Shown here: in pieces, positions 16,733-63,604 of the stretch
Numbering within the stretch: the stretch's first letter is position 1
Layout of the letters: each line of letters opens with the position of its first letter
NCBI GenBank assembly: GCA_041675085.1
Contig: JBAYUN010000004.1
Coordinates: 2,032 to 66,031 of the forward strand
Direction of reading: 5' to 3'
DNA length: 64,000 nucleotides
From: Minisyncoccota bacterium
GTDB lineage: Bacteria > Patescibacteriota > Minisyncoccia > Phycocordibacterales > UBA9973
The notes under the pieces: generated by a model
Seen by the model: the letters and a program-made list of their open reading frames with translations, nothing else
Database searches by the model: none
Told to the model about the DNA's origin: nothing
Program-made: the position numbers and the translations under genes

Positions 16733-19700
16733 CTATGATTGTACAGTTTGAGAAATTGGAAGATTTTTAACTCCGTATTCTCCTGTCCAGTCATTAGTTG
16801 TTGTTGAGTGTCCTGAAGCTGAAACGTCAGACCAAATGATTGTTACATCAGAGTCAGCAGTTTCTACATCAGCTGCACTATCTGAAGCTGCGTAAGCAGC
16901 ATCACCAGCAAGCTTTGTAACTACGTAGTCAACATCAATGTCAACAGAAGCAGCAGTCATACGTAATTCGTATGTCTTTGTTCCTGAAACTTGTTGTACA
17001 GCTGTAGCATCGAACTCTATAGTTCCTGAAGTGTTTGTAGCACCTACAGTTGTAAGAGTATCAGTACCAGCAACTTCTGCGTTAGCAGTAACATCCCATA
17101 GTACAGCGTTAGTTAATACTGGGTCAGCAGTCTTTGAAACTTCAAAGAACAATCTTGACCATTCAATAGTACCACCGTTTGAAGTGATAGTGAATCTTGA
17201 AAGCACGTTTTCACCTGCTTTTAATTTATCACCACTCAAAGCAACAGCTGTAATAGTTGGAGTTGCAGCGTAAGCATACATTGCATTTCCAGCTGGACCA
17301 TTTTCTAATGCTTCACAAGTTGAGTTTCCACAACCTGCATCGTTAGCTGAAGCATCTGAAGTACCAGTTGAAGTATTTGTAGCTGTGAAAGTTGATAGAG
17401 TTACAAGTTGTGAAGAACCTGTATCACCTGCACCAATTCCAACAGAACCTAATACTAATTTAACAGTCAACACTTTGTTTTGGTTAGCTGGAACATTCCA
17501 GTTAAGACCATTGAAAGTAACTGGACTAGCACCTGGTTTTGAAGCAATCAAAGTAGCACCGTCGTAAAGTTCTACACTTTGTGCCACAGTAGTATTACCT
17601 AATGTGAAAGTAAGATCTGTTACGTTGTATCCAGCAGTAATTGCAGCGAATTTGAATGCAGCAGCAGTAACTGTTTGATTGTCATGGACAATCGCAGCAA
17701 CTGGAGTTGAAGCATCTGTAGTAGCTGTAATTGAAGCTGTACCTGCTGTAATTGTTTGACCAGTTGTAACAGCTGGGGCAACCGCAGTTCCTGAAACACT
17801 AGCTGTACCTGTCAAAGTTAAGTCTATGTCAAAGTCAGTACCTACTGTTGCAGCAGAACCAAGATTTGCATAAAGCTCAATTGACATATTTGTATTCTTA
17901 ACCAATGTGTGATTGATTGAGAAAGCATTTCCTGTAGCACTAACTGTAGCTAAAGGAGAAGGTTGTGAAACAATGTTTCCTGCTGCATCTTTAACAACAA
18001 TATACATGTTTGTTAAATCATCAGCAATATCAAAGTCGTCAGCAGAACCTCCTTCATCAAATGAAACTGTTGTTAAAAGAACATCTTCTACTGAAGAACC
18101 TGCAACGTTCCAAGAACCGATTTTGAAACCAGTAGCTGGAAGAGAAACAGATTGGTTAGCATAAGTTGCGTTCTTTGTAAGACTAACAGTTGCTGAAGCA
18201 ACAGTTAATGTATTACCATTAACAGCTGTACCAGGAGCATTGAATGATCCTAGAGAATCAACTTTTTGAGCGTTTGATGAACCAATAGCGATAACACCAA
18301 TTATAGTATCACCAGCTGTAAGGTCGTTTGTACCGTCATTGTCAAACATATCTGCATGTAAGTCCATAAGTACTGGTGTACCTGGGTTTACAGTGTAATT
18401 CAATGTGTATTGTGTATAAGCAGGTGTTGAAGAGTCTTCCATCAAAGTTGATGTAGAACCGTATTGAACACCACCTATAACGATACGTCCATTTCTTAAT
18501 GAATCTACAGCGTTATCAGAAGTTGTGAATGAAGCACGGATATTTTCGATCTTGATAGGTTCACCGTAAGCTGTAACTTTGTAAGTAGCGATTTTAACAT
18601 CGTTACCAGCTAAAGTTGCGTTTGTTGAAGAAGATGAAACATCTTTTTCAATGATTAATGAACCTCCACCTTGACCTGAAATTGTACTTTCAGTAGCAGG
18701 AGCCCATGGTAATGGATCAGTTGTTACACCACCTACAACACCAGGAACAATGTTAACTCCGAAAGATGAATCTACGAAATCAACATCAGCTGCACTTCTC
18801 AAAGAGAAATGAACTGTTCTTGAAGCACCAGATACGATATCAGCATCAACACGTACTACACGTGTTCCTGATTGTAGCATTACTGGAGTTGAAGTCATGT
18901 CAAAAGTAACATAACCGTTAACATCTACACCAGCAGCTGTCGCAACTTGAACTCCATTTACATAAAGTTTAAAGCCACCGAAAGCATTAGCTGGAGCTGA
19001 TCCAACATTTCTGAAAGCTACTCTTTTCATCCAAACATCTCTTTGTGAGATATTTAAACTTGATTGCCACACTGTTACGTTTGCACCTGGGTTAAGAGTT
19101 GCATTTGTAGGTGTTTCTATTCCAGAAGTAACGCCAGCTAATGTAGCATTAGCTATTGAATGAATGTTACCTGAAAGGTTAACAGTTGAAGTTGTGCCTC
19201 CAGCTGTAACTGTTGCAAGCATCATACCTACAGTTTGACCTGAAGTATTAGCAGCAATGTCAGACTTTACAGAAATAGTTTTTGTACCGTTAACTGTGAA
19301 GATTCCTGAAGGAACGTTGAATGTAACTGTACCGTTGTTTGAAACTGAAGCTGCATCTGTCAAACGTGTAGCACCGTCAAATAGGTAAACGTTTGAAGGA
19401 GTAGCGTCAGCTGAAACTCCGATTCTTTGTAAAGTAACAGCAGTAACTGTGCCTGATCCACTGAAAGTGAAGTTAGCTAAGTTAGCTGTAGCTTGTCCTG
19501 CAACAAGAGTAGATGAAGCTGGATTGTTTGAAGACAATGCAACTGTAACTGGTCCTGTTTGTGAAGTTGAACCTGAACATGGTTGTCCAGTTGTAGAACT
19601 GAATCCTGATGTTGATGAACAACCTGCTGGAAGAGTTGTACTAACTCCTGTAGAACAAGATACTCCTGTGATAGGAGAGAATCCTGCTGATGATGTACAT

Positions 19701-20046
19701 CCTGCTGGATAGTTACCTCCTGTTGAAGTTGTACCTGTCCATGAAGCTCTTGAAGCTGGTCCAAAGATACCGTCTGCTGTTAATCCCTTACTAGCTTGGT
19801 AAGCTTGTACGGCTGTTTTGGTTTTAGAACCGAAGTAGTTTGTTTCACTACCTACTGATCCTGCACCTGAAGTTGAAACAACGAATCCTTTTGAGTTAAG
19901 ACCTTGTTGAAGTTCTTTAACTTGACTGTTGTTTGAACCTAGTTTTAGTGTTGAAGTGATAGCAGCTGAAGCTGTTCCTGTTGAAAGGATAACTGCAGCA
20001 GCAACCATCAAACCTAAAACGAATTTTGATTTGAATAAATTACTCA
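16733..20046 (-). CDS. Giant Ser/Thr/Ala/Gly-rich secreted surface protein with an N-terminal PG_binding_1 domain (S-layer- or adhesin-like); the ORF reaches 20113 but the likely start is MSNLFKSKF at 20046
   Basis: A signal peptide and LKLGSNNSQVKELQQGLNSKGF..FG..T..AV..YQ..KGLTADG are followed by about 1000 aa of low-complexity beta-rich sequence. Confidence 0.7.
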
Positions 20047-20640
20047 TATTTTTTTTAATTACGCCATTAATAAGTTTCGACAAAACTAAAAGCGTATTTT
20101 CTATCGTCCTCATCCCTACTTAATTAATAAATAATAATAATGCGTAGTGACTTGCGAGGACAAAAAGATTTGAACTAAACTTGAAAACATAACTAAAGAC
20201 ATTTGCAATTGTGATGCAAACATTTTTATTGTATTAAGTTTTCAATGACCTTTCTTTTACCGAATCTTTGCAATAAATTTATTTTACTAAACTTAAAACA
20301 AAGACAGGCTTTGATCCTTTGTGTACTAAATCTTTTCGACGAAATTTAGCAACAAGATCTTATACTATATATAAGTATGAGAATAAGACTTTCGTAAAAT
20401 TCTTCACACTAATAATATATACGTATACATTATAATATAGACTCTCGAATAAGAGCAATATTACAACGTGTGGATAACCGATAATTTCGCATAAGAAAAA
20501 TAAATTCTTCGCTAGTTACTCCACCTATCTATATTGGCATATTTTTGACATAAAAGCAAACACAAATTAGGTTCTAGTCGCTAGGTTCTAGGTTCTAGGA
20601 AAATGCAAAAATGCAAAAAACAAAGAAAGGTTATTAGAGA

Positions 20641-21606: not shown

Positions 21607-21715
21607 TTAGGTTCTAGTTTCTAGTTACTAGGGGCTAGGTTCTAAAATTAGTTTCTAGTTTCTAGTTGATAGGTTCTAGAAAGCAAACAACTAAACACTA
21701 GCACCTAGAAACTAA
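21607..21715. repeat. Array of CTAG-containing direct repeats (taggttctag / tagtttctag) phased at about 10-11 bp; shorter arrays at 20568-20599 and 26041-26068
   Basis: At least seven TTCTAG cores within 75 bp, in the divergent region between the winged-helix gene and ftsK. Confidence 0.6.
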
Positions 21716-21741
21716 TACCTAATCTATGCTAAAATATATCA

Positions 21742-23964
21742 ATGGCGAAAAAGAAATTAAAGAGGGTTAAACGAAATGAAACACAGAAGGCGGAGGTAGA
21801 AAAAAATAATTCTTTAAGTTTAAAAACAGAAACAAAACACGGAATATTGGCTGTTGTTTTTTTTGTTATAGCATTATTTTTATTTATGTCAGCTTTTGAA
21901 ATGGGAGGAGTAGCGGGAGAATTTTTTTATAAAATTCTTTCTTATGTATTCGGAGTTGGGTATGTATTGTTGCCGATACTTTTCTTGTTGTTAGGATCAT
22001 CTTATATCAAATCTGAGAGTCCAAATCTTGGAGGTGTGCGTATTGCGAGTTCTATTTTATTCTTGCTCTCAGGTCTCGGTATTATCGATATCGCGACTAG
22101 TAGCAATCCAGGAGAATTTAGTGGAGATCATGCGGGAGGATTTTTAGGAAAAATTCTCGCGACTCCACTCGTAAATCTTTTTGATGTGTATGCGAGTATC
22201 GTATTCCTCGGAGCGTTGCTCATCATCTCGATACTAATCATGTTTGATACAAAACCAAACTTGATAAAATTCTTTAACAGCATTTACAATTTCTTTACTG
22301 GTAAAAAAGACGAGAGTCTCGAAGGTGAAGAAGAGGACGAAACAGACGAGGAAGAAGAAACAGAAGACGAGGAAGAAGTAGTCGAGAAAATAAAAAAAGT
22401 TCCAGCAGTCGCAAGTACACGCGAACCTGAAATGAAAATCGCAGAGAAAGAAGAAGAGATGCCTATCAAGAAATTGAAACCTAGCACCATGTCTAACTAC
22501 GTCCCTCCTCCTCTGTCTCTACTAGAAGAAGATAAAGGTAAAGCCAATACCGGAGACATAAAAGCAAATTCAAATATCATAAAAAGAACTCTTATGAACT
22601 TTGGTATCGAAGTCGAAATGGACGAGATAACTATCGGGCCGACAGTGACCCGTTATGCATTGAAGCCTGCCGAAGGAGTGAAACTCTCTCGTATACTCGG
22701 ACTGCAAAATGACCTATCACTCGCACTCGCTGCTCACCCTCTCCGTATCGAAGCTCCTATCCCAGGCAAGTCTCTCGTCGGTATCGAAGTCCCAAACAAA
22801 ACTAAATCTACAGTCGGACTCGCTACCCTACTCGCTGATGATAAATTCCAACATTCACCAAAACCACTAACTCTAGCACTCGGTCGTTCTATCTCGGGCA
22901 AAGCGAGTTTTGGAAACTTGGCAAAAATGCCTCACTGTCTAGTCGCGGGTACTACTGGATCTGGAAAATCTGTGACCATACACTCGATGATAACTTCTCT
23001 ACTATATAGAAACGGACCTGAGGACTTGAAATTCATCATGGTAGACCCAAAACGTGTCGAGCTCACTCTATACAAAAACATCCCTCACCTATTGACCCCA
23101 GTCATCACCGAAGCCAAGAAAGCCATCCTCGCTCTAAAATGGGCGGCGAAAGAGATGGATAGAAGATACGACATATTGGAGCAAGAGTCTGTGCGTGATA
23201 TCGAATCTTATCACAACAACGTATTAGGAAAGAATAAGTCTCGAGCGGAAGGTGAAAAAGAATTAGAGCGCATGCCTTATATCGTGATATTTATCGACGA
23301 GTTGGCGGACATCATGACCACTTATCCTCGTGAACTCGAGTCTGGTATCGTGAGACTTGCTCAAATGTCTCGTGCGGTTGGTATTCACCTAGTACTATCT
23401 ACTCAAAGACCAGAGGTAAACGTCATCACAGGACTTATCAAGGCCAACGTCCCTGCTCGTATAGCTCTAAAAGTATCTTCACAAATAGACTCTCGTACAA
23501 TACTCGACACAGGAGGAGCCGAGAAATTGCTCGGAGCGGGAGACATGCTCTACTCTTCAGGTGAGGCACAACCAGAACGTCTACAAAGTGCCTTTATATC
23601 TGAGACTGAAGTTAAGAAAGTCGTGAGTTATCTATCTGATGCTTATAAAGATGAAATCAATGCAGAAATAAATCTAACTCCTGCTAGCGTGGGAAACGAC
23701 AAAGGGATATTCGAAAGTACTCTCGACGGCGAGGATGAAGTCGACGATGAGATGTATGAAGAAGCTCGTGCGACAGTTATCGAAGCTGGTAAAGCTAGTA
23801 CTTCATACCTACAAAGGAAACTCAAGCTCGGATATGCTCGTGCAGCGCGCCTAATAGACGTACTCGAAGCGAGAGGAGTTATCGGTCCTGGAGACGGAGC
23901 AAAGCCGAGAGAAGTATTGGAGAAAATCAACAGAGATGAGAACGGCGATAACGTCATGGAATAA
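21742..23964 (+). CDS. ftsK: DNA translocase FtsK/SpoIIIE
   Basis: N-terminal TM helices, an acidic linker, Walker A (VAGTTGSGKSV) and a C-terminal gamma (winged-helix) domain. Confidence 0.9.
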   Translation: MAKKKLKRVKRNETQKAEVEKNNSLSLKTETKHGILAVVFFVIALFLFMSAFEMGGVAGEFFYKILSYVFGVGYVLLPILFLLLGSSYIKSESPNLGGVRIASSILFLLSGLGIIDIATSSNPGEFSGDHAGGFLGKILATPLVNLFDVYASIVFLGALLIISILIMFDTKPNLIKFFNSIYNFFTGKKDESLEGEEEDETDEEEETEDEEEVVEKIKKVPAVASTREPEMKIAEKEEEMPIKKLKPSTMSNYVPPPLSLLEEDKGKANTGDIKANSNIIKRTLMNFGIEVEMDEITIGPTVTRYALKPAEGVKLSRILGLQNDLSLALAAHPLRIEAPIPGKSLVGIEVPNKTKSTVGLATLLADDKFQHSPKPLTLALGRSISGKASFGNLAKMPHCLVAGTTGSGKSVTIHSMITSLLYRNGPEDLKFIMVDPKRVELTLYKNIPHLLTPVITEAKKAILALKWAAKEMDRRYDILEQESVRDIESYHNNVLGKNKSRAEGEKELERMPYIVIFIDELADIMTTYPRELESGIVRLAQMSRAVGIHLVLSTQRPEVNVITGLIKANVPARIALKVSSQIDSRTILDTGGAEKLLGAGDMLYSSGEAQPERLQSAFISETEVKKVVSYLSDAYKDEINAEINLTPASVGNDKGIFESTLDGEDEVDDEMYEEARATVIEAGKASTSYLQRKLKLGYARAARLIDVLEARGVIGPGDGAKPREVLEKINRDENGDNVME

Positions 23965-41018: not shown

Positions 41019-41117
41019 ATATTTAATTGTTTTATTATGAAATTAAAAAACTTGTCTAATTTAATAGAAACATAATTTTTATAAAATGTCAATAATAAAA
41101 GATTCAGTTAACGATTG

Positions 41118-41191
41118 TCCGTCCTCATGGATTCGAACCATGGACCCCAGAGGTATAAGCTCTGTGCTCTAACCAACTGAGCTAAGGACGG
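41118..41191 (-). tRNA. tRNA with anticodon UAU (reads AUA), i.e. tRNA-Ile(UAU)
   Basis: Manual cloverleaf: acceptor CCGTCCT/AGGACGG, D-arm GCTC-AGTTGGTTA-GAGC, anticodon stem CAGAG/CTCTG with loop CTTATAC, T-arm CATGG-TTCGAAT-CCATG, discriminator A. Confidence 0.65.
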
Positions 41192-43141: not shown

Positions 43142-43345
43142 AGACTATATAATAACATAAAATTTGAGAAAATTAAAGGATAAAAAACCGACTTTTAAAT
43201 GTTGGGTTTTGGGTAGAGTTTTGTGATACTCCGCTCGTTTGTACTCGCGGAGTCCTACAAAAATATAATTCTTTTTTGGTTTTGTGGCGCCGTATGATTA
43301 CATACGGCATCCTACAAAAATATAGTCGCTATGCTCCTTATTTTT

Positions 43346-43746
43346 GTGGAGATGACGGGAATTGAACCCGTGTGCAAAAGATGACTATATTAAAATCTAC
43401 ATGTGTAGCTTGTTTATATTTTTAAATTAAAAAATTCTTAAAGAAGCAAAATATTTTTTAATCGAGCTTGAATTTTCATAAATACGTTCAGCACGTGTAT
43501 CTCTTATCCCGATAATATTTTGCCAGTTTTCATATATCGGAAGTCTATGAAACTGACACCAACCTGCGCGCTTAGGCGAAAGCTGGAGCGAAAGCAAAGT
43601 CCTTCATACCGAAGTATGGAGAAACTCCTGCCTTAACCTTAGAAGCTAATTTTGCAATTAGACATTTGAACTTTGATTTACGAGAAAACTTCCCTACTCG
43701 ACATGCATTAATATAGCGAGACCTCTTGTCTATGCCTTGCATCCCC
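43346..43746 (-). ncRNA. ssrA: tmRNA (SsrA), tag reading frame ..GMKDFAFAPAFA*
   Basis: 5' GGGGATGCAAGG.. pairs with the 3' ..CATCTCCAC acceptor; the T-arm is GGGTTCAATTCCCG; the in-frame tag ends AFA then TAA; it lies next to smpB. Confidence 0.75.
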
Positions 43747-48276: not shown

Positions 48277-48873
48277 CTATAACTTGTATTCCCCTACTTT
48301 GTCAGCATTAATCAAAGTTATCAAATCTTTCACCATTTTCTTTGGGTCATCTGTCGCTACTATCGTCGGGTTGCCTTTATGACTTTTAGCTACTATATCT
48401 TTCAATTGATCGCCCATCTCCCAAGGACCTTCAAATATTCCTATCGGCTTATTTTCTTGCAAGGCTGTAGTAAAGTTGTGAATAGTACCTACACGCCCAC
48501 AACCACAAATCAGCGCGTCTGTAGAGCGGACTAGAAGTATATCTCTACCTCCATAACCAAAACCTGTGTAGATAACTAAGTCCATGTAATCTATCGGTAG
48601 TTTGTATACTTCTATATGCTCGCGTTCGTTGGCTGCTGGAGAAAATCCTATAACCATACCTCCCTCTTCTTTTGCTCCCATAGCTACCCAAAGAGAGAAT
48701 CCAGTCGCAGCTCCCATGACAAGCACTGCACCATTACGAGCTATTTCGCGACCGAGTTCTTTAGCTTTATCAAGAGCATCGATACCACAATGCCCCGTCT
48801 CAGCAGCACCTGATACACATATCTTCAATACTTTATGACCATGCTTATTTAAATTTAAGTTATTTGGATTCAT
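48277..48873 (-). CDS. TIGR00725/LOG-like Rossmann-fold nucleotide-binding protein
   Basis: ..VSGAAETGHCGIDAL.. and GAATGFS.. patterns; 198 aa. Confidence 0.45.
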   Translation of the reverse strand: MNPNNLNLNKHGHKVLKICVSGAAETGHCGIDALDKAKELGREIARNGAVLVMGAATGFSLWVAMGAKEEGGMVIGFSPAANEREHIEVYKLPIDYMDLVIYTGFGYGGRDILLVRSTDALICGCGRVGTIHNFTTALQENKPIGIFEGPWEMGDQLKDIVAKSHKGNPTIVATDDPKKMVKDLITLINADKVGEYKL

Positions 48874-48880
48874 CCCGTTA

Positions 48881-48974
48881 AATGTTTTTGATTAATTTAT
48901 AATTTAATTATACTTTATTTTTTAATAATTATATTTATTTATCTCTACCCGTTTTTTAAAACATTTAACGGGAT
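48881..48974. promoter_or_regulatory. 17-bp perfect inverted repeat (atcccgttaaatgtttt / aaaacatttaacgggat) enclosing a roughly 58-bp AT-rich spacer
   Basis: Seen directly in the sequence, between the beta-CASP gene stop and the LOG-like gene start. Confidence 0.5.
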
Positions 48975-48993
48975 TCATATTTTAATTATATAA

Positions 48994-50358
48994 TTAACAA
49001 ACAAGCGTAATAACATCCCCTTGATCTGGAGCGTAAGCTTCTAGTCCTAGATTGTCTCTCAACTTTTGAACTAAGAATAAAGCGGATTTTGGCTCACCCA
49101 TGACTACGAAAACTTTCTTTAAAGTCTCAGATGTGTCTTCTACGAAGTTTATAAGATTATCACTGTCTTTGTGTCCTGAATATCCTGAGATAGTAGTGAT
49201 GTGGGCACGGACTTCGACGTATTCACCCGAGATACGTACAGTCTTCACCCCTTCTTGAATCATACGTCCTGGAGTGCCAGCAGATTGATATCCAGTGAGC
49301 AAGAGAGTGTTATTAGGATCAGGCAAGAAATGACGCTCATGATGCACTACACGTCCTCCAGAGGACATACCCGAGCCCGCAATGATGACTTTTGGATTTG
49401 GGAAATGATTGATAGTTTTTGATTCTTCAGATTTGAGAGTGGTGTGAAGTCCAGGGAAATCAAATATGTATTTATCGTGCACCATGACGGCTTTAGCTTC
49501 GTCATTAAAATAATCTTTGTATTTTTTGAAAACTTCAGTGAGCTTAATAGCTAGCGGTGAATCAAAGAAAATAGGCATGACAGGGATTCTTTTATTTTCT
49601 ACTAGTTCGTTCAACTCAAATAGTAATTCTTGGGAACGTTCGAGAGAGAAAGTCGGGATTATCAAAGTCCCCTTTCGGTTATAATTATCTTCTATAGCTT
49701 TCTCCAAGAACTTCCTACGGTCATCACGTGATTCGTGATTTCTGTCTCCATAGACTGATTCCATAATCATATAATCAATATCAGTGACTTTATCTGTATC
49801 GGGTAATATTGGGGAGGGACTGTTGCCAAGGTCTCCTGTGAACAATATCTTTTTGCCATTGTAGACAAATTTAAACATAGATGAGCCTAGGATATGACCT
49901 GCATTTAGCATGGTGACTTCAAGATCAGGTGTGATTTGTATTTTTTCATAATATTTAAAACCAGTCCAAAGATTCATAGCTGTCTTGATATTCTCTGGAG
50001 TATAGATAACATCTAAACCAAATTCAGTATTTTTAGAAAGTATCATTGCCGTATCTTCCATCATAGGCAAAGCGAGCGCCTTGGTCGGTTCGGTAGAATA
50101 GATAGCTCCCTTGAAACCTTCAGAGATTAATTTCGGAATACGTCCAACGTGATCGATATGAGCATGAGTTACAAATAAAATATCTATTTCTTTTGGATCA
50201 TAGGGAAATTTATCCCAGTTCAAATCATCAGCGAGTTTTACACCTTGAGTCAAACCACAATCTATTAATATTTTCTTTCCATCAACTTCAAAAAGAAAAT
50301 TTGCACCAGTTACGGTACCTGTTCCCCCTGCGAATGTTATCTTGGCTACTTTTTGCAT
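48994..50358 (-). CDS. MBL-fold beta-CASP family ribonuclease (RNase J / CPSF-like)
   Basis: HAHIDHVG (HxHxDH); 454 aa. Confidence 0.7.
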   Translation of the reverse strand: MQKVAKITFAGGTGTVTGANFLFEVDGKKILIDCGLTQGVKLADDLNWDKFPYDPKEIDILFVTHAHIDHVGRIPKLISEGFKGAIYSTEPTKALALPMMEDTAMILSKNTEFGLDVIYTPENIKTAMNLWTGFKYYEKIQITPDLEVTMLNAGHILGSSMFKFVYNGKKILFTGDLGNSPSPILPDTDKVTDIDYMIMESVYGDRNHESRDDRRKFLEKAIEDNYNRKGTLIIPTFSLERSQELLFELNELVENKRIPVMPIFFDSPLAIKLTEVFKKYKDYFNDEAKAVMVHDKYIFDFPGLHTTLKSEESKTINHFPNPKVIIAGSGMSSGGRVVHHERHFLPDPNNTLLLTGYQSAGTPGRMIQEGVKTVRISGEYVEVRAHITTISGYSGHKDSDNLINFVEDTSETLKKVFVVMGEPKSALFLVQKLRDNLGLEAYAPDQGDVITLVC

Positions 50359-51092: not shown

Positions 51093-51569
51093 TTAATCTT
51101 TGTGCTCAGCGTAGATAAAATCAGTGTCGATTTTTTTGTATGAGAAGATTTCTTCCTCTCCAAAAAATCTTTTTACTTCTATTTCTCCAGTCTCCACAGA
51201 ATCAGATGCGTGTACGATATTTGATTGAGTAGAAAGTGAATAATCTCCTCTGATTGTACCTGCATTCGCTTCCCAAGCTTTTGTTGGTCCGACGATAAGT
51301 CTGATAGCTGAGACAGCATTGATACCAGATAAAGCCATAACAACAACAGGACAAACTGTCATAAAGTCACGAGTACCTGGGAAAAAAGGCTTGTCTTTGA
51401 TGTGAGCATAGTGCTCTTCTATTAAAGCGTCTTTGATAGACATCATCTTTAAACCTACTATTTTTAATCCTTTTTTCTCGAAACGAGCTATGATTTCCCC
51501 TACTAGATTGCGTTGCAATGCGTCTGGCTTGATAATAATTAAAGATTTCTCTTCATTTGGTCTTGTCAT
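51093..51569 (-). CDS. ndk: Nucleoside diphosphate kinase
   Basis: IIKPDALQRNLVGEII and NIVHASDS. Confidence 0.9.
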   Translation of the reverse strand: MTRPNEEKSLIIIKPDALQRNLVGEIIARFEKKGLKIVGLKMMSIKDALIEEHYAHIKDKPFFPGTRDFMTVCPVVVMALSGINAVSAIRLIVGPTKAWEANAGTIRGDYSLSTQSNIVHASDSVETGEIEVKRFFGEEEIFSYKKIDTDFIYAEHKD

Positions 51570-51639: not shown

Positions 51640-54399
51640 TTATTGCATTCCACTATAACGAGCCATGATCTCAGACTCTACTTCTTCGCGGTCGCGTCCG
51701 TATTTTAGATATGAAAGTTGTTTCAAACTATCTACTATCTTCATACTACCCTCTTCTGGAGCGAGAGTTTGGATATTGAAAGGTTTGGTCGGTTGACCAC
51801 GGACTAGCATCGATACATACGCATTGTAGTTATCTATCTTAGTAATATCTCTTGCTGTGAAAACTGGTTTGAATTTTGCTTCCAAGAAATTCGCATCCTC
51901 AGGTGAAACACGAAACACAGCCATAGAACCTACGTTACCAAAAACCGCATTCTTGATACCTTCGTCAAGTTGAGAGATGTATTGGTGAGCAACATTTAAG
52001 GACAATCTATATTTACGAGCTTCAGACAAAATAGAAGAAATAGAATCTGTGGTCACGTTTTGGAACTCGTCTATGTATAGATAAAAATCATTCATTTGTT
52101 TTCCAAACATATCGACGCGAGATAGAGCCGCCATCTGAATTTTACCAACAAGCACAAGACCGATAAGGTTCGCGTTAATATCACCCAGACGTCCTTTGGA
52201 TAAATTCACTAAAAGAATCTTTTTCTCGTCCATGATTTTCCTAAAGTTAAATACAGATTCTTGTTGCAAGACTACAGGACGCATAATATCGTTACTGATA
52301 AAGTTGTCGAACTTGGATGAGATATAAGGTACAAAGTTAGCGAGAGATTGATCTCCACTCGTCTCTTCGGCAGATTTCCAGAATTGTTTAATGATAGGGT
52401 TCTTGCATTTCGCCAATTTCATATCACGGAAATTCTTGTCGGCTAGGACGCGAGTAATCTCGAGCATAGTCGAACCAGACTCAGGATCTTCCATCACAAG
52501 AAAAGCACTATTTCTAAAGTATTGCTCAAACATAGCTCCTCCTCCGACTTTCATGTCGAAAAGTTTATTGAAAATACCCATGAGTTCATTGACCACGAAA
52601 GTCTTTTGTTCCGGATAACGTGGATCGAATTCCAACATATTTAGACCCATAGGTCTCTCAGTATAAGCAGGATCGAAGTATATCACATCATCCATACGTT
52701 CACGTGGAATACGAGAAAGTATAGTCTGAATATCTGTACCGTGAGGATCGATATAACAAACTCCATCTCCATTCCTAATATCCTGAGTTATCATATTTAA
52801 CAAGATATTCGTCTTACCTGTTCCTGTCTGACCGATGACGTAAAAGTGACGCATTCTATCTTCGCGAGTCATACGAATAGGAGTCTCACGACCTCGATAA
52901 CTATTCATACCGAGAATAATGCCTTCAGAACCCATATCCATAGGTGCCGGAGCAATACCAGACTTTGCTTCTTTGAGTTGAGACATATTGCCGATACCTA
53001 CAGGGAAATGAAAAATAGAAGCTAGTTCTTTTAGATTTAAAGGCAGAACTTTGTCATGAGAAAAGATACGGAAAGAGAAATCGTGAAAAAGTTTCTTCAA
53101 ACTACTACCGTTCATGCGTTCGAAAACTATAGAGTTACTTGCAACTTCAGTAAATTGGTTGAAAGAGGATTCTATTTCAGTTAGAATAGCGTCGGCTCTT
53201 TCTTTAGTCTCAGCGGAAGTTATAATTCTGATGTTAGCTTTCATGATAGAGCTTTTCAATTTATTATTGATTTTCTCAGGTGCGCCTTCGTCTACTGCTC
53301 TCCTACCCTTCATGAATTTTGGGTCATCCTTTTTTTTAGTAGGACCAAAAAATAAATCTTTAGAAGCATTCAAAAAAGCAACGTGGAATTTATAAAATTT
53401 ATCTGATGCATTTTTAACAGAAGTCCCACTCTTTACATCATCTAAAATTTTGTGAAAATCTACGATAAATTGGTTGCCAGCGGGAGCTATCAAGAGTTGA
53501 ATAGAGGCACCTTCACCTTCGGTTTTGAGTTTAGAAAATACTCCCAAGATATTCTTCATCGGATCATGATCGATATTTTCATAGGTACGTATAGGTAATA
53601 CTGGTTTTTCTGACAAATAAGCATAAGCACCCGAAGAATGACCTTCATTATTAAAAATATTAAAATCGTCTTTTACTTCTTTGACTTTAGCATCATGATA
53701 AAAAGCCAAGATTTGTTTCTCAAAAAGATTTAGATGTTTATTTGGAACACTTGCATATATCACTACTTGATCCGTCTGACTATCTAAAGCTACCTCAAGA
53801 GTAAAATATTCTTCTTTGGGATTATTTTTATCGAGCGAAATAGAAGCCATACCAGCATAAAACTGCTCCATAGCTCCGATAAATTCTTTGAAACTTTTGA
53901 CCTTATCGGCTTCATCCTCTGGAGGAGGTAGAGTAATTTCAAAAAGAGTCATTTTTAAAGCTCGGTCTAAATACCCACCTTCAGTGAGGTCTTTCACTAT
54001 TTCACCTGTTTTTAAATATTGGATTAAAAGCCTGTGAAAATCATCATCGATATGAGGATTGTTCATCGCTTCTACGATAGATAGAGTATTGCGTATACCT
54101 TTTGTTAAAACGAGTCCCAAGAGCTCTTCCATAACAGTATCGTGAAGCTCGGGTTTTAATTTGAGCACAATGCCGTCTTGTTCTTTTTGAGTTAGATTGT
54201 GATTTGTGGCGAGGACTTCTTCTTTTGGCGCTTCTTTATAATCGAGAATAGTTTCAGTCACAACCGCATTTTCTGCACTTTCAAAATGACCCAAGCTTAC
54301 TAGCTCTTGTTCTTTTTTTGCAATATGCGCCCGTAAATAAGAAAGTTCTTCTTCAGGGTTTTTAAATTTCGGCATTTCATTTAGAAATGATTTTTCCAT
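51640..54399 (-). CDS. Large soluble P-loop ATPase of the FtsK/HerA/TraD(VirD4) superfamily (type IV coupling-protein-like, no TM anchor); the ORF extends to 54438
   Basis: Walker A GQTGTGKT, DPHG, Walker B FYLYIDEFQ and the coupling-protein-like RKYRLSLNVAHQYISQL. Confidence 0.6.
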   Translation of the reverse strand: MEKSFLNEMPKFKNPEEELSYLRAHIAKKEQELVSLGHFESAENAVVTETILDYKEAPKEEVLATNHNLTQKEQDGIVLKLKPELHDTVMEELLGLVLTKGIRNTLSIVEAMNNPHIDDDFHRLLIQYLKTGEIVKDLTEGGYLDRALKMTLFEITLPPPEDEADKVKSFKEFIGAMEQFYAGMASISLDKNNPKEEYFTLEVALDSQTDQVVIYASVPNKHLNLFEKQILAFYHDAKVKEVKDDFNIFNNEGHSSGAYAYLSEKPVLPIRTYENIDHDPMKNILGVFSKLKTEGEGASIQLLIAPAGNQFIVDFHKILDDVKSGTSVKNASDKFYKFHVAFLNASKDLFFGPTKKKDDPKFMKGRRAVDEGAPEKINNKLKSSIMKANIRIITSAETKERADAILTEIESSFNQFTEVASNSIVFERMNGSSLKKLFHDFSFRIFSHDKVLPLNLKELASIFHFPVGIGNMSQLKEAKSGIAPAPMDMGSEGIILGMNSYRGRETPIRMTREDRMRHFYVIGQTGTGKTNILLNMITQDIRNGDGVCYIDPHGTDIQTILSRIPRERMDDVIYFDPAYTERPMGLNMLEFDPRYPEQKTFVVNELMGIFNKLFDMKVGGGAMFEQYFRNSAFLVMEDPESGSTMLEITRVLADKNFRDMKLAKCKNPIIKQFWKSAEETSGDQSLANFVPYISSKFDNFISNDIMRPVVLQQESVFNFRKIMDEKKILLVNLSKGRLGDINANLIGLVLVGKIQMAALSRVDMFGKQMNDFYLYIDEFQNVTTDSISSILSEARKYRLSLNVAHQYISQLDEGIKNAVFGNVGSMAVFRVSPEDANFLEAKFKPVFTARDITKIDNYNAYVSMLVRGQPTKPFNIQTLAPEEGSMKIVDSLKQLSYLKYGRDREEVESEIMARYSGMQ

Positions 54400-54430
54400 T
54401 TCTAAATTATAGCAAGAAAAAAACATATTA

Positions 54431-54509
54431 AAAAGCAAAATGTTAAAATTTTCATGGTCTGGTTGAGCAAAGCGACCCGAGGACCTGAAAATTTTAATAT
54501 TTTGCTTTT
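54431..54509. promoter_or_regulatory. Imperfect 28-bp inverted repeat with a 22-nt loop, about 35-110 nt upstream of the probable start of the ATPase gene
   Basis: aaaagcaaaatgttaaaattttcatggtc .. gacctgaaaattttaatattttgctttt. Confidence 0.4.
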
Positions 54510-54617
54510 TAATTAAAAAAATAAATAGTATTTAAAAAACGCACATAAAAATCTGCTGATTTTTTGCTATGCTCGGACCGTCGTCCTGTGCAATGTTTTT
54601 TAAATACTATTTCTTTT

Positions 54618-55394
54618 TTATTTTTTAGTTAAAATTTCTCCTCCACTTTTACCTACAGCAATAGTTAATTCAAAGTGCGCGCTGTATTTACCGTCATTGG
54701 TTTTGAAAGTCCAATCATCACTATCAACAAAAACATTTTTAGTTCCCATATTTAGCATCGGCTCGAGAGCGAGGACCATACCTTCTACAAGCTTCTCGCC
54801 TGTACCCTTTTTACCAAAATTCGGCACATAAGGATCTTCGTGAATATATTTCCCAACTCCATGCCCAGAGAGAATATCGACAATCCCGTATTTATGTTTT
54901 TGTTTTCTTACAAAAGTCTCAATAGCATAACCTATATCCCCAACTCTTTTACCAATTTTCGCAGCCTTGATACCTATCATTAGAGCTTCTTCAGTGATTT
55001 GCAAAAGTTTCTTGTATTCATCCTTAATCTCGCCGACAGGTACAGTGATAGCCATATCGGTGAAATAACCCTTGTGCTTTACTCCACAATCAATAGCTAC
55101 GATATCCCCGTCATTCAGAATACGATCAGGACGAGGAATACCATGCACAACTTCGTCGTTAATAGATACGCACAAAGTCGCCGGGAAAGGAGTCTTGGCC
55201 CCGTAAGGTTTATAATTCTTGAAAGCTGGTTCGTCGCCGTATTCACGGATAAGTTTTTCCGCATATTCATCGAGCTCTTTTACCGAAACGCCAGGCGCCA
55301 CCATATCACGCACTTTATAAAGCACGGTAGCTAAATGTTTGCCCCCTTCTCGAATTATCTCTATTTCTTCTTTTGTTTTAATTATTATTGCCAT
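54618..55394 (-). CDS. map: Methionine aminopeptidase type I
   Basis: Metal ligands in AIDCGVKHKGYFTDMA.. and HGVGKYIHEDP. Confidence 0.9.
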   Translation of the reverse strand: MAIIIKTKEEIEIIREGGKHLATVLYKVRDMVAPGVSVKELDEYAEKLIREYGDEPAFKNYKPYGAKTPFPATLCVSINDEVVHGIPRPDRILNDGDIVAIDCGVKHKGYFTDMAITVPVGEIKDEYKKLLQITEEALMIGIKAAKIGKRVGDIGYAIETFVRKQKHKYGIVDILSGHGVGKYIHEDPYVPNFGKKGTGEKLVEGMVLALEPMLNMGTKNVFVDSDDWTFKTNDGKYSAHFELTIAVGKSGGEILTKK

Positions 55395-57343: not shown

Positions 57344-58729
57344 CTATCTAAAGTTGATAACGTTACCGTTCTCAAGAATGATAGCCCCTTCAGGACAGCC
57401 TAATAAGAAATTGGCATAAGCACGAGTAGTTTTGTATGTATAACCCGTAGCTTCGGAAATTACCCAAGGAATTAGCACGTATTGTCTGTATTTAGTTTGG
57501 AATGCACGAATTGCTATTTCAGTATTGCCTCCATACAGGCCGTCTAAAACTAAATTAAAGCCTTCGTATTTGTTCAAAAATGCTTGCCACAATCTAACTT
57601 CTTGAGGATCATTGTTGATATCACCTTTTTTCAAATATTTAGTAAAGACAGGACAAGCTCTTTGGGTATTATCAATAGGAGAATTTACAAAAACTGTATT
57701 GTTGTTATTTATTGGCGGATTCTGAACTTGGATTTGTTGTTGGACTGGTACATACACAGAATTAGATGAAGTACCATTCGGTCCAGTACAAGTCAGGATA
57801 AAGGTTGTAGAAGCAGTCATGTTGCCAATAGTTTGATTGCCGCTATTTGCACTCTTCTCTCCTGTCCAACCATTACTTGCAACACAGCTTGTAGCATCAG
57901 TCACATTCCAATTTAGAGTGACGATACCTCCGTATGGTGTAGGTATAGGAGAAGCATTTAAGAAGACTGCAGGTGGATTTGATATTGGTTGAGACACAGG
58001 CACATATACAGAAGCATTAGAGCTACCTCCAGGACCCGTACAAGTCAAAACGAAAGTAGTACTAGCACTCATATTACCAATAGATTGATAACCACCATTT
58101 GCGTTTTTGGTACCAGTCCAACCATTACTTGCAATACAGTTTGTAGCATTACTGATATTCCAACTTAGGTTAGTAACTCCATTATAGGGAGAAGGATTTG
58201 GAGATGCTGATAGAGATATTTGAGGTGGATTTTGAGGCTGAGCAACATCAGTAGGAGGATTTATCGGAGGGTATGAAACTGGTGGTGTTCCAGATTGAAT
58301 ACACTCTAGAGAAGTAGTAACTCTAATATAGTCCCCTTGCTCGTAGTATTTAGATCTTTTCCAATTTGTAATAGTTTCTACTTTATAATCCCTAATACCT
58401 ATTGTTTGTGGATACCATTTTTGACAATAAGTAAGCTTATCTAAATCAGCTCCACTAACGCCATCCGGATCTGGTCTCCAGAATCCAGCAGGATCTACGT
58501 GCTGATTCACTTTACCCCACCAGTACGCAATACGAGGAGTTGTATCATTACTAGATACTAAAGGCAGAGAAACTTGAGAAGCAGGATTTACCAGATTGCT
58601 AAATTTATCGGCCACGTTATTAAATACACTTGCTAGACTTAATTCTCCAGGACTTTTCAAGACAACAAAACCTACTAATAAAACTCCGAAAATCAAAGAG
58701 AAGAGTGCTACATTTTTTTTAATCAACAT
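57344..58729 (-). CDS. Secreted protein: YWWGKVNQH..LTYCQKWYP domain, two Ig-like repeat domains, C-terminal PG_binding_1-like domain
   Basis: PRIAYWWGKVNQHVDPAGFWRPDPDGVSGADLDKLTYCQKWYP; two near-identical modules of about 75 aa (SPNPSPYNG..TCTGPGG / SPIPTPYGG..TCTGPNG); the C-terminus reads LYGGNTEIAIRAFQ. Confidence 0.75.
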   Translation of the reverse strand: MLIKKNVALFSLIFGVLLVGFVVLKSPGELSLASVFNNVADKFSNLVNPASQVSLPLVSSNDTTPRIAYWWGKVNQHVDPAGFWRPDPDGVSGADLDKLTYCQKWYPQTIGIRDYKVETITNWKRSKYYEQGDYIRVTTSLECIQSGTPPVSYPPINPPTDVAQPQNPPQISLSASPNPSPYNGVTNLSWNISNATNCIASNGWTGTKNANGGYQSIGNMSASTTFVLTCTGPGGSSNASVYVPVSQPISNPPAVFLNASPIPTPYGGIVTLNWNVTDATSCVASNGWTGEKSANSGNQTIGNMTASTTFILTCTGPNGTSSNSVYVPVQQQIQVQNPPINNNNTVFVNSPIDNTQRACPVFTKYLKKGDINNDPQEVRLWQAFLNKYEGFNLVLDGLYGGNTEIAIRAFQTKYRQYVLIPWVISEATGYTYKTTRAYANFLLGCPEGAIILENGNVINFR

Positions 58730-63118: not shown

Positions 63119-63604
63119 TTATTTACCCAAGAGTATTTCGTGACGAACTTCTTCTTTAAATGATTTCACATCTTGAGAAATACCAGTTATTTGGTCTTGT
63201 AGTCTTGCTTCGGTTTCTAGTAGGTCTGTTTTAGTAGCAAAAGCTTTTAAATCTTCTTTATTAGTCATATTTTCTAAAATATAAGCAGTAGTTTTTGCAA
63301 TTAAATCTACCTTTGTATCTGTTTCTAGCAAATCGGTTTTAGTGGCAAGAGCTTTTAAATCTTCTTTAGTAGCCATATTTTGCTCCAAAGTACTTAAATC
63401 TTCTTTAGTAGCCATATTTTGCTCCAAAGTACTTAAATCTTCTTTGGTGGCCATTTTTTGTTCCAAAGTACTTAAATCTTCTTTGGTCGCCATTTTTTGT
63501 TCCAAAGTACTTAAATCTTCTTTGGTCGCCATTTTTTGTTCCAAAGTAATAAACCTCCTATTTATAGATTCTAGTAATTCTTTATTGGAGATATCTTTTT
63601 CCAT
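63119..63604 (-). CDS. Coiled-coil tandem-repeat protein (TLEQKMATKEDLS x5), paralogue of 15964..16452
   Basis: Five head-to-tail 39-bp DNA repeats at 63356-63550. Confidence 0.6.
   Translation of the reverse strand: MEKDISNKELLESINRRFITLEQKMATKEDLSTLEQKMATKEDLSTLEQKMATKEDLSTLEQNMATKEDLSTLEQNMATKEDLKALATKTDLLETDTKVDLIAKTTAYILENMTNKEDLKAFATKTDLLETEARLQDQITGISQDVKSFKEEVRHEILLGK

Follow-up and report, generated by a model that had tools for sequence, protein, structure and literature searches.

What kind of motor is a protein that reads like a type IV coupling protein in one half and carries no membrane anchor? This question is raised by a gene on the minus strand of a 64,000-nucleotide stretch of a Minisyncoccota bacterium genome (contig JBAYUN010000004.1), which as a whole is called the window in the following. 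An earlier note on this DNA had described the gene product as a soluble TraD/VirD4-like ATPase of 930 amino acids (aa), with an unassigned N-terminal half of about 450 aa, a 28-bp inverted repeat upstream and a conceivable role in DNA uptake. We find a cytoplasmic P-loop protein of four parts, namely a helical module, a domain resembling the N-terminal domain of VirB4, the motor and a C-terminal tail. With moderate confidence, we read it as a soluble VirB4-like translocation motor, probably for DNA, which would act at the membrane with a partner and independently of any type IV secretion system (T4SS). The gene, its start region and the parts of its product are located as follows.

51640 to 54438, minus strand: mechanical open reading frame (ORF), 932 aa from a TTG codon, taken from the ORF list and its translation
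51640 to 54399, minus strand: coding sequence of the DUF8128-family ATPase, 919 aa plus the stop codon at 51640-51642
54400 to 54438, minus strand: in-frame TTG extension of the mechanical ORF, non-coding, contains the promoter -10 box
54406 to 54414, minus strand: extended -10 element TGCTATAAT, ending 6 nt before ATG 54399
53986 to 54141, minus strand: N-terminal helical module, aa 87-138, homologous to the C-terminal part of a separately encoded small protein
52960 to 53982, minus strand: DUF8128 domain, aa ~140-480, with a fold like the VirB4 N-terminal domain
51760 to 52932, minus strand: P-loop motor domain, aa ~490-880, from Pfam, NCBIfam, a PDB profile search and Foldseek
52810 to 52833, minus strand: Walker A motif GQTGTGKT, aa 523-530, seen in the translation and invariant in the family alignment
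52738 to 52749, minus strand: DPHG, aa 551-554, aligned with DPNG of TrwB
52060 to 52086, minus strand: Walker B motif FYLYIDEFQ, aa 772-780, from the translation and the family alignment
51982 to 52017, minus strand: RKYRLSLNVAHQ, aa 795-806, aligned by phmmer with RKAGLRVVAGLQ of TrwB
51652 to 51744, minus strand: conserved C-terminal helical tail (..LSYLKYGRDREEVESEI..), kept in the family alignment

The ORF itself is confirmed, while its full length is not: 932 aa are reached only from the TTG codon. The ATPase almost certainly starts at ATG 54399 and comprises 919 aa beginning with MEKSFLNE, because orthologues with 89-92% identity begin with the same residues, the homologues measure 919-923 aa, and the -10 box occupies the region just upstream. 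TTG 54438 and a further ATG at 54426 lie within or upstream of this promoter-like element. The absence of a membrane anchor is supported by a hydropathy scan. The best 19-residue Kyte-Doolittle mean is 1.54 and falls within the ATPase core, there is no N-terminal hydrophobic segment, and the N-termini of anchored relatives reach 1.9-3.1. All four motifs quoted before (GQTGTGKT, DPHG, FYLYIDEFQ and RKYRLSLNVAHQ) are found in the translation at the places given for them.

The C-terminal half had been called coupling-protein-like, and the sequence comparisons support this. In Pfam, TrwB_AAD_bind (23.9 against a cut-off of 20.5) and TraG-D_C (23.0 against 22) score just above their thresholds, both over short stretches only. 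In NCBIfam, SXT_TraD ranks first (E = 1.9e-14; 53 bits, far under the cut-off of 366), followed by TOL TraD and the CD1115 VirD4-like model, all of them far under their curated cut-offs. A search of the PDB with the single protein matched TrwB, and a 19-sequence family profile found TrwB (5.6e-5) and DotL/IcmO (1.8e-4) as best sequence matches. No VirB4, FtsK or HerA chain came under 0.05 with this profile and no VirB4 chain appeared at E ≤ 1; likewise, the VirB4 sequence models CagE_TrbE_VirB, AAA_10 and TIGR VirB4 gave no match at E ≤ 1 in Pfam or NCBIfam. In the alignment with TrwB, the Walker A, DPxG, Walker B and RK...Q segments correspond to each other and are invariant across the family. 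This includes R795, K796, H805 and Q806 of the RKYRLSLNVAHQ segment, which probably represents the arginine and sensor region.

The earlier note had named a confident assignment to HerA or FtsK in a conserved housekeeping context as the result that would speak against it. Such an assignment was not obtained. DUF87/HerA remains sub-threshold in Pfam (22.0 against 23.2) and covers 39 residues around the P-loop, the NCBIfam HerA model reaches 15 against 970, the HerA matches in PADLOC are weak, and no NurA-like gene was found among the neighbours. FtsK_SpoIIIE has no Pfam match to the ATPase. A conserved housekeeping context does exist, though in the close lineage only. Judged by its sequence, the motor appears to be a catalytically intact ring ATPase of the FtsK-HerA type, nearest to the type IV coupling proteins (T4CPs) TrwB, DotL and TraD.

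A full-length AlphaFold2 model, derived from a family alignment of 19 sequences (mean pLDDT 81.7), superposes in Foldseek on TrwBdeltaN70 with a TM score of 0.65 over ~430 columns, i.e., on nearly the whole chain including the all-alpha domain. It superposes on HerA, Cag-beta and the VirB4 C-terminal domain, too. Between Walker A and Walker B, the model shows an all-helical stretch (aa ~597-724) in the position of the coupling-protein all-alpha domain. VirB4 carries a helical insertion at the same place, and thus this stretch does not discriminate between a coupling protein and VirB4.

The N-terminal half, previously regarded as unassigned, turned out to be a DUF8128 domain with the fold of the VirB4 N-terminal domain. 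PF26449 (DUF8128) is precomputed on all 120 best homologues, including proteins that are 91-92% identical, and the label DUF8128 is given in the four related loci L001-L004; the membership of the window protein is hence an indirect one, read off the annotations of its homologues. A literature search for PF26449 and DUF8128 returned no paper. On the sequence level, a profile of the domain produced chance-level matches only in the PDB. The domain modelled alone (aa 135-490, pLDDT 80.2, pTM 0.81) gave a clear picture in Foldseek, where 13 chains of TrwK, the VirB4 protein of R388, are the only matches at E ≤ 5e-5. Motor-only structures (TrwB, the VirB4 C-domain, HerA) are absent from this list; therefore, the likeness is to the N-terminal domain of VirB4 and not to its motor. 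For the full-length model, the best matches are full-length TrwK chains, collinear over ~900 columns with E = 3.7e-13 and ranked above any motor-only structure. Since the N-terminal half is VirB4-like, the overall architecture is VirB4-like as well and not that of a classical VirD4/TraD protein. In the models, the ATPase thus has the architecture of VirB4, combined with a motor whose sequence is coupling-protein-like.

How widespread this combination is was addressed by several searches. More than 1400 homologues of the ATPase were found, of which the best 120 are 76-92% identical, and the close homologues all carry Patescibacteria labels, e.g., Candidatus Nomurabacteria and Paceibacterota. 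A second protein search with the family alignment added little new diversity (63-92% identity). With the N-terminal half, HMMER returned 1029 clusters (50% identity) at E ≤ 1e-3 from 1.84 billion representative proteins. One genome per GTDB species was scanned as well, with more than 600 matches; the best 80 of these were analysed as loci, and nearly all 80 are labelled as metagenome-assembled genomes of the candidate phyla radiation (CPR) or Patescibacteria type. The DUF8128 ATPase family is restricted to, and common in, Parcubacteria-type CPR genomes, with distant relatives in phages. In the window, tblastn found no second paralogue of the ATPase.

The family occurs in two forms. Long forms measure ~905-935 aa, like the window protein, and were found in genomes labelled Nomura-, Kaiser-, Adler-, Taylor- and Zambryskibacteria. 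The short forms of ~800-840 aa, whose genomes bear the labels Sung-, Portnoy-, Niyogi- and Moranbacteria, are without the first ~140 residues and have a single, strongly hydrophobic helix in their place (mean hydropathy 1.9-3.1). In 10 short-form loci (L062, L064, L066, L067, L069, L073, L075, L077, L079 and L082), the gene immediately upstream encodes a soluble protein of 125-156 aa without a Pfam match, whose C-terminal part carries the motif KG..HA..VA..L.D.Y.LD.FHD.L. This part corresponds to the N-terminal module of the long form: hhalign aligns it with aa 87-138 at a probability of 97.1% (E = 4.7e-11, 52 columns), BLAST matches the two as well, and the AlphaFold2 model predicts helices at aa 87-130. 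The long form is thus the small protein fused to the ATPase, while the membrane helix has been lost. As is commonly argued from gene fusions, the two proteins would then interact in the short-form lineages.

The more distant relatives come from phages. The profile phrog_5156 (unknown function, 824 positions) matches aa 149-918 with its positions 27-811 (E = 2.8e-83), and tblastn detected relatives in 48 phage records, mostly of Bacillus and Geobacillus phages, with ~22% identity over aa ~180-915. They include phage G gp156, CP-51, D6E ORF23, GBK2, TP-84 gp48 and SPO1-like phages. Alignments by hhalign reach a probability of 99.7% (E = 3.4e-25) for D6E ORF23 and of 99.3% (E = 3.6e-20, 673 columns) for SPP1 gp32. 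They span both domains and thereby confirm the homology of the phage proteins and the ATPase for the N-domain as well as for the motor. The C-terminal tail also aligns in SPP1 gp32. SPP1 gp32 was described as an early protein that is not essential and has no membrane segments; it resembles TrwB, VirB4 and FtsK in its C-terminus and might build a translocon with the small membrane proteins gp31.1 and gp31.2 (PMC6316719). Genes 31.1 and 31.2 are located directly upstream of gene 32, and their products are multi-helix membrane proteins; the match of gp31.1 to TrbC/VirB2 (E = 0.1) is not significant. In general, the phage relatives sit in early, replication, recombination or partition regions, as seen for SPP1 gp32, TP-84 gp48 and D6E ORF23.

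The window protein thus shares the DUF8128-like N-domain, the motor and the tail with SPP1 gp32, GBK2, TP-84 gp48, D6E ORF23 and phage G gp156 over ~670 columns, and with SPP1 gp32 also the lack of transmembrane (TM) segments. The identity is only ~20-22%, however, and the phage proteins are devoid of the fused N-terminal module. Furthermore, the phages carry theirs as accessory early genes, in contrast to the CPR gene, which is strongly conserved and sits on the chromosome between housekeeping genes. A reduced version was observed on IMG/VR contigs (L124-L135), which encode a stand-alone soluble motor of ~410-430 aa with the C-terminal tail, 28-40% identical to aa ~465-915. At least one of these motor-only genes lies beside integrase and AlpA-like genes (L134), and another beside genes for an M23 peptidase and a PLD-type nuclease (L124).

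The gene neighbourhood offers a further clue to function. The two direct neighbours in the window are:

54618 to 55394, minus strand: map, methionine aminopeptidase, upstream neighbour (Pfam Peptidase_M24; synteny)
51093 to 51569, minus strand: ndk, nucleoside diphosphate kinase, downstream neighbour (Pfam NDK; synteny)

The gene map is the last one of a secY-adk-...-map string, so that the ATPase gene, between map and ndk, lies at the tail of the ribosomal-protein/secY genes. In minus-strand order, secY is followed by a gene for a 461-aa peptidoglycan-binding protein, cmk (on the opposite strand), adk, an amino-acid-kinase-family gene, map and the ATPase gene, and then by ndk, a gene for a 178-aa membrane protein, a beta-CASP nuclease gene and a SLOG/LOG-like gene. 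The 178-aa protein has no Pfam match; its orthologue in L002 is DUF2238-like. Conservation of the neighbourhood, which the earlier note had proposed as a check, is limited to part of the family. The order map-ATPase-ndk-(...)-beta-CASP-SLOG is kept in ~25 closer loci, down to roughly 45-50% protein identity, but the map-ATPase-ndk synteny is absent in the more distant long forms and in all short forms. Some local rearrangements were seen besides. The beta-CASP and SLOG genes are adjacent in the window (48277-50358), and in L002 a pair resembling a diversity-generating retroelement (bAvd and reverse transcriptase, 7492-8881) lies between them. The 91%-identical locus L001 has three extra genes between the amino-acid-kinase-family gene and map compared with the window (7191-9197), namely a 502-aa gene, a DUF7387 gene and a HicA toxin gene.

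Other neighbours recur elsewhere in the family. In three loci, dnaX directly follows the short form (L063, L069, L085), and in the last of these, GIY-YIG, UDG, ExoIII-like and ExoVII genes follow as well. RmuC is encoded at most 5 kb away in L040, L071, L077 and L078, and a GtrA-like membrane protein follows in 7 loci. A protein of ~850-1060 aa with coiled-coil and TM segments and without a Pfam match is encoded next to or near the ATPase in 8 loci, which comprise both ATPase forms and different lineages: L062, L077 and L082 (also L071 and L073) on the one hand, and L036, L042 and L057 on the other. The two groups of large proteins have no BLAST similarity to each other. In 6 of the 8 loci, a DUF5663-like protein of ~104 aa directly follows. 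We consider the large coiled-coil and the DUF5663-like proteins as candidate partners of the ATPase; tblastn found no homologues of them in the window.

Gene linkage was assessed by Pfam scans of the adjacent genes and of the ten largest ORFs in the window, and by sampling recurrent neighbours from 88 related loci. Among these annotated neighbours, no T4SS, relaxase, com or pil gene was recognised near the ATPase; in particular, comEC, comFA and pil were not found nearby, and virB3, virB6 and virB8 were not found adjacent. The window does encode a canonical FtsK (21742-23964) with 4TM, alpha, motor and gamma domains, and therefore the ATPase is not the FtsK of the cell. The idea that it substitutes for FtsK was dropped on this ground.

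A comparison with the known systems can now be drawn. The window ATPase shares the N-domain fold with VirB4/TrwK, but unlike these it matches no VirB4 sequence model, has no virB3, virB6 or virB8 among the neighbours covered, is soluble and carries an extra fused module at its N-terminus. TrwB, VirD4, TraD and DotL are the best sequence relatives of its motor, and the spacing from Walker A to DPxG, Walker B and the RK...Q segment align with those of TrwB. Unlike these coupling proteins, it lacks the N-terminal TM domain, carries ~480 extra N-terminal residues with a VirB4-type fold, shows no linkage to relaxase or T4SS genes among the same neighbours and scores far under the NCBIfam cut-offs.

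Our preferred reading of the ATPase as a T4SS-independent translocation motor can be spelled out as follows. The protein would form a ring, as VirB4, TrwB, FtsK and HerA do, and ATP hydrolysis would drive the movement of a polymer, as in all characterised relatives. This polymer would most likely be DNA, because the nearest sequence relatives are DNA-pumping coupling proteins, and because the recurrent neighbours and the phage contexts consist of DNA-metabolism genes. The ATPase would work with a partner on the inner side of the membrane, rather than serve a conjugative T4SS as its substrate receptor; a place at the membrane is suggested by the VirB4-type N-domain, by the anchored orthologues and by the translocon proposed for SPP1. 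In the lineage of the window, the contact to the partner would go through the fused module. Several points weigh against this reading. The substrate, DNA or protein, and the partner are deduced only from gene neighbourhoods that are weak and variable, and the map-ATPase-ndk synteny does not extend to the distant long forms and the short forms. The call on membrane segments comes from a hydropathy scan only, which is a crude test. The full-length model has a pTM of 0.66 from 19-sequence alignments, so that its inter-domain geometry is uncertain. Finally, the VirB4-like N-domain might just as well serve for docking on a chromosomal T4SS of these bacteria, which could be encoded outside the 64-kb window.

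The last point leads to the ATPase as a true T4CP of the VirD4/TraD type, which would feed DNA or effectors to a T4SS elsewhere on the chromosome and dock there via its VirB4-like N-domain. We regard this as possible, though unlikely. The coupling-protein hidden Markov model matches and the best PDB sequence matches would fit, and so would the public labels of the homologues, which read 'type IV secretion system DNA-binding domain-containing protein' or 'TraM recognition domain-containing protein'. In a recent survey, such proteins are counted as T4CP homologues, and t4cp genes are often far from virB4: 5,713 VirD4-type homologues are reported from 2,918 patescibacterial genomes, about two per genome, of which only 148 are near virB4, and 'exaptation for other functions' is raised by the authors (PMC12102498). 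Monoderm-type T4SS are common in Patescibacteria according to the same paper (PMC12102498), and the premise of the earlier note that these organisms have no conjugative systems is therefore wrong for the phylum. What argues against a true coupling protein is the protein itself, with its missing membrane anchor (hydropathy maximum 1.54), an extra VirB4-type N-domain that is not found in coupling proteins, and a best NCBIfam score (53 bits) that stays far under the cut-off of 366. Linkage to a relaxase or T4SS gene was likewise not seen among the neighbours covered in the window and in the 88-locus sample. In S. epibionticum, the T4SS is essential according to the literature and is described without recognisable coupling and relaxase proteins, whereas an unlinked t4cp homologue, possibly a DUF8128 protein, is not essential.

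A role in DNA uptake, as suggested in the earlier note, found neither support nor contradiction; no com, pil or T4SS gene is linked among the neighbours examined. It would make the ATPase a cytoplasmic motor of DNA uptake or processing in competent, nucleotide-auxotrophic CPR cells, in which the incoming DNA is degraded for salvage; we consider this quite improbable. The protein is DNA-translocase-like, and in the Helicobacter ComB system DNA uptake is indeed powered by VirB4-type ATPases. The neighbours in the close lineage, i.e., adk, the amino-acid-kinase-family gene (which may be pyrH), cmk, ndk, the beta-CASP nuclease gene and the SLOG/LOG-like gene, would suit such a pathway. However, both adk and map ordinarily belong to the tail of the spc operon, which means that the kinases may be neighbours by coincidence, and the synteny is gone in the more distant lineages. 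To this adds that comEC, besides not being found nearby together with comFA and pil, is dispensable for the growth of S. epibionticum according to the literature.

Two further explanations place the ATPase away from secretion altogether. As a purely cytoplasmic housekeeping DNA translocase or helicase, HerA- or FtsK-like and acting in repair, recombination or segregation without a membrane or secretion role, it would well explain that the protein is soluble and very strongly conserved, with ~77% identity among the best 120 homologues, many of them labelled Nomurabacteria and Paceibacterota. The housekeeping gene context, the dnaX, RmuC, ExoVII and UDG genes near short forms and the weak DUF87/HerA matches point in the same direction. 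We nevertheless judge it improbable: a canonical FtsK is already present at 21742-23964, neither the HerA nor the FtsK models are reached, the orthologous short forms are membrane-anchored, and the N-domain is that of a membrane-complex ATPase. A domesticated gene of a phage or mobile element, of the SPP1 gp32 type and with a role in conflicts such as exclusion or defence, would account for the phrog_5156 match (E = 2.8e-83), the relatives in 48 phage records, the hhalign probabilities of 99.3-99.7% to SPP1 gp32 and D6E ORF23, the motor-only relatives on integrase/AlpA islands and a weak PADLOC mad8 match (6.6e-12). This is highly unlikely in view of the stable chromosomal position, the high conservation across many CPR lineages, the identity of only ~20-22% to the phage proteins and the absence of defence or mobile-element genes adjacent to the gene in the window. 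A role as a defence system was dropped, as the mad8 match is partial, the HerA matches are weak and defence neighbours are missing.

A bolder version of the preferred reading would treat DUF8128 as a separate branch of the secretion ATPases that has kept a VirB4-type N-domain on a motor of the coupling-protein type. CPR bacteria would have made of it a T4SS-independent chromosomal DNA pump with gp32-type phage relatives, and the fused small protein would be a conserved regulatory or docking subunit. We offer it as a speculative and rather improbable idea. One possible route for such a pump would lead host or environmental DNA into nucleotide salvage, and a salvage role would fit the adjacent adk, cmk, ndk and amino-acid-kinase-family genes as well as the beta-CASP nuclease and SLOG genes.

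It remains to ask how the gene is expressed and what the inverted repeat upstream of it represents. In 42 of 56 orthologous loci, a hexamer agreeing with TATAAT in at least 5 of 6 positions is found, and its distance to the ATG is 5-9 nt. There is a sharp peak at distances of 6-8 nt, the others occurring 1-2 times each, and 21 of these loci have a TGn extension. By eye, the 6-nt spacer shows no Shine-Dalgarno sequence. A simple promoter and terminator scan of the map-ATPase spacer returned nothing, and the -10 box becomes visible only by comparison of the orthologues. The ATPase gene thus has its own conserved -10 box, and the fixed distance to the start codon predicts an independent transcript, which would be a leaderless mRNA made from this promoter. 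A related arrangement was noticed at ftsK, where TGCTAAAAT lies 6 nt before the ATG (window ~21722-21741); with a -10 box so close to the ATG, many genes of this genome may be transcribed without a leader. Immediately before the -10 box of ftsK, the heptamer TAG(T/G)TTC occurs in ~10 tandem copies together with inverted copies (21608-21679, 21691-21725), and a smaller array lies 1 kb away (20568-20599). Similar short tandem arrays are located just upstream of the ATPase -10 box in L008, L038 and L039. Such arrays may be transcription-factor sites that replace a -35 element.

The spacer between map and the ATPase gene measures 218 nt and is filled by two back-to-back A+T-rich hairpins with G+C-rich loops, here called I1 and I2. 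It folds with -69 kcal/mol (z = -8.3 against shuffles), and therefore the structure is more than chance. The two hairpins and the I2 copies located in related loci by a covariance model are:

54427 to 54513, no strand assigned: hairpin I1, arms 54427-54454 and 54486-54513 of 28 nt, 96% complementary, with a 31-nt G+C-rich loop
54508 to 54622, plus strand: hairpin I2, arms 54516-54540 and 54595-54619, invariant core 54541-54594, overlapping the map stop codon
L004, 1297-1411: copy of I2
L006, 4869-4986: copy of I2
L010, 4671-4789 and 4812-4924: two copies of I2
L011, 505-618: copy of I2

I1 is the 28-bp inverted repeat of the earlier note. The repeat is real, with 28-nt arms, but its limits are 54427-54513 rather than 54431-54509. 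On the transcript, it is followed by an AUG and then by U7, and its left arm overlaps only the non-coding TTG extension of the ORF. The proposed regulatory site is not a conserved one, as it is absent from the closest orthologous loci, unique in 1.15 Mb and situated upstream of the conserved -10 promoter of the ATPase. A search for copies of its loop with up to 6 mismatches in 1.15 Mb of related loci found none. I1 is missing from L001, L002 and L004. The closest orthologous locus, L001, has a spacer of only 21 nt without any hairpin, L002 and L003 have a different hairpin at this site, and L004 has a single hairpin with I1-like stems and the I2 core. The hairpin of L002 (750-860) and L003 (92%-identical sister locus) belongs to a second, unrelated element with the core AGATTTTTTGAAGCTTAAAAAATCCTGAAGTT. 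This element recurs in contigs that contain I2 (L091 ~5312, L100 ~6636), and in L091 elements of the two types lie ~100 nt apart.

I2, in turn, is a recurrent element of ~115-130 nt. An exact 24-mer of its core was found in 35 metagenome contigs, and in 32 aligned copies, 36 consecutive core positions (CATAAAAATCTGCTGATTTTTTGCTATGCTCGG...) are invariant. The long stem flanking the core covaries, with compensatory changes in 16 of 34 pairs. Its copies are intergenic, mostly start within ~20 nt of a stop codon and occur in either orientation; the core in the window is inverted relative to L004 and L006. Within one metagenome, near-identical copies have unrelated flanks. A search of Rfam with the hairpins produced no match at the gathering threshold; at E ≤ 10, the only models to appear were generic long-hairpin miRNA ones, far below it. 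A covariance model was built from 25 copies and scores the window copy at 102 bits. It finds I2 in the map-ATPase spacer of the window, L004, L006, L010 (with two copies) and L011, and elsewhere directly after the stop codon of secY (L023), after that of the ATPase gene (L029) and after the amino-acid-kinase-family gene (L007). Copies are also present in L014, L039 and L089-L123. For the I2 element, an RNA gene, a terminator module and a selfish foldback element all come into consideration. Of both hairpins, we conclude that they either delimit the upstream transcription unit at its end or represent selfish foldback elements which settle there, and that they are not a conserved operator of the ATPase gene. 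In terms of the proposed expression of the ATPase, they would end or insulate the upstream operon, or be selfish, rather than act as specific regulators.

The remainder of the window, whose G+C content is low (~34%), carries the 5' end of a 23S rRNA, a tmRNA, a tRNA-Ile(UAU) and a string of ribosomal-protein genes with secY. The tRNA-Ile (41117-41191, minus strand, anticodon TAT) represents an unusual bacterial means of reading AUA. For the tmRNA (43344-43746, minus strand), a tag of 27 residues is predicted (AKLASKVKAGVSPYFGMKDFAFAPAFA), which is long for a bacterial tag. Five near-perfect tandem units of 39 nt (96% matches) were found at 63355-63548 inside the ORF 63119-63604 on the minus strand. 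PG_binding_1 occurs in four large proteins, all encoded on the minus strand (1428-3389, 12071-13528, 16733-20113 and 57344-58729), two of which also match an APP_N-like heparin-binding domain. A 1323-aa LCAT-like lipase/acyltransferase is encoded at 6506-10477. Together with the four PG_binding_1 proteins, it probably forms a cell-surface set.

With respect to previous work, the ATPase is not a new kind of thing, since it has a Pfam DUF record, NCBI labels referring to T4SS and TraM, and probably a place among the 5,713 T4CP homologues counted in Patescibacteria by Quinonero-Coronel et al. 2025 (PMC12102498). The passages of that paper which were searched, on VirD4, coupling proteins, T4CP, TraD and solubility, contain no account of the DUF8128/VirB4-like N-domain, of soluble versus anchored forms, of the small protein and its fusion or of relatives in phages. 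In the literature searched, no description was found of the VirB4-like N-domain, the dichotomy of anchored and fused-soluble forms with a small partner protein, the link to phage proteins of the SPP1 gp32 type or the conserved leaderless-type promoter. For annotation, it follows that the labels 'T4SS DNA-binding domain protein' and 'TraM recognition domain protein' on these genes are not evidence of conjugation. Patescibacteria make up a large share of bacterial diversity and depend on hosts for nucleotides and other building blocks. For this group, the N-domain, the two forms, the small partner protein and the phage relatives provide concrete experimental handles, and the DUF8128 family adds a data point on the relationship between VirB4 and the coupling proteins.

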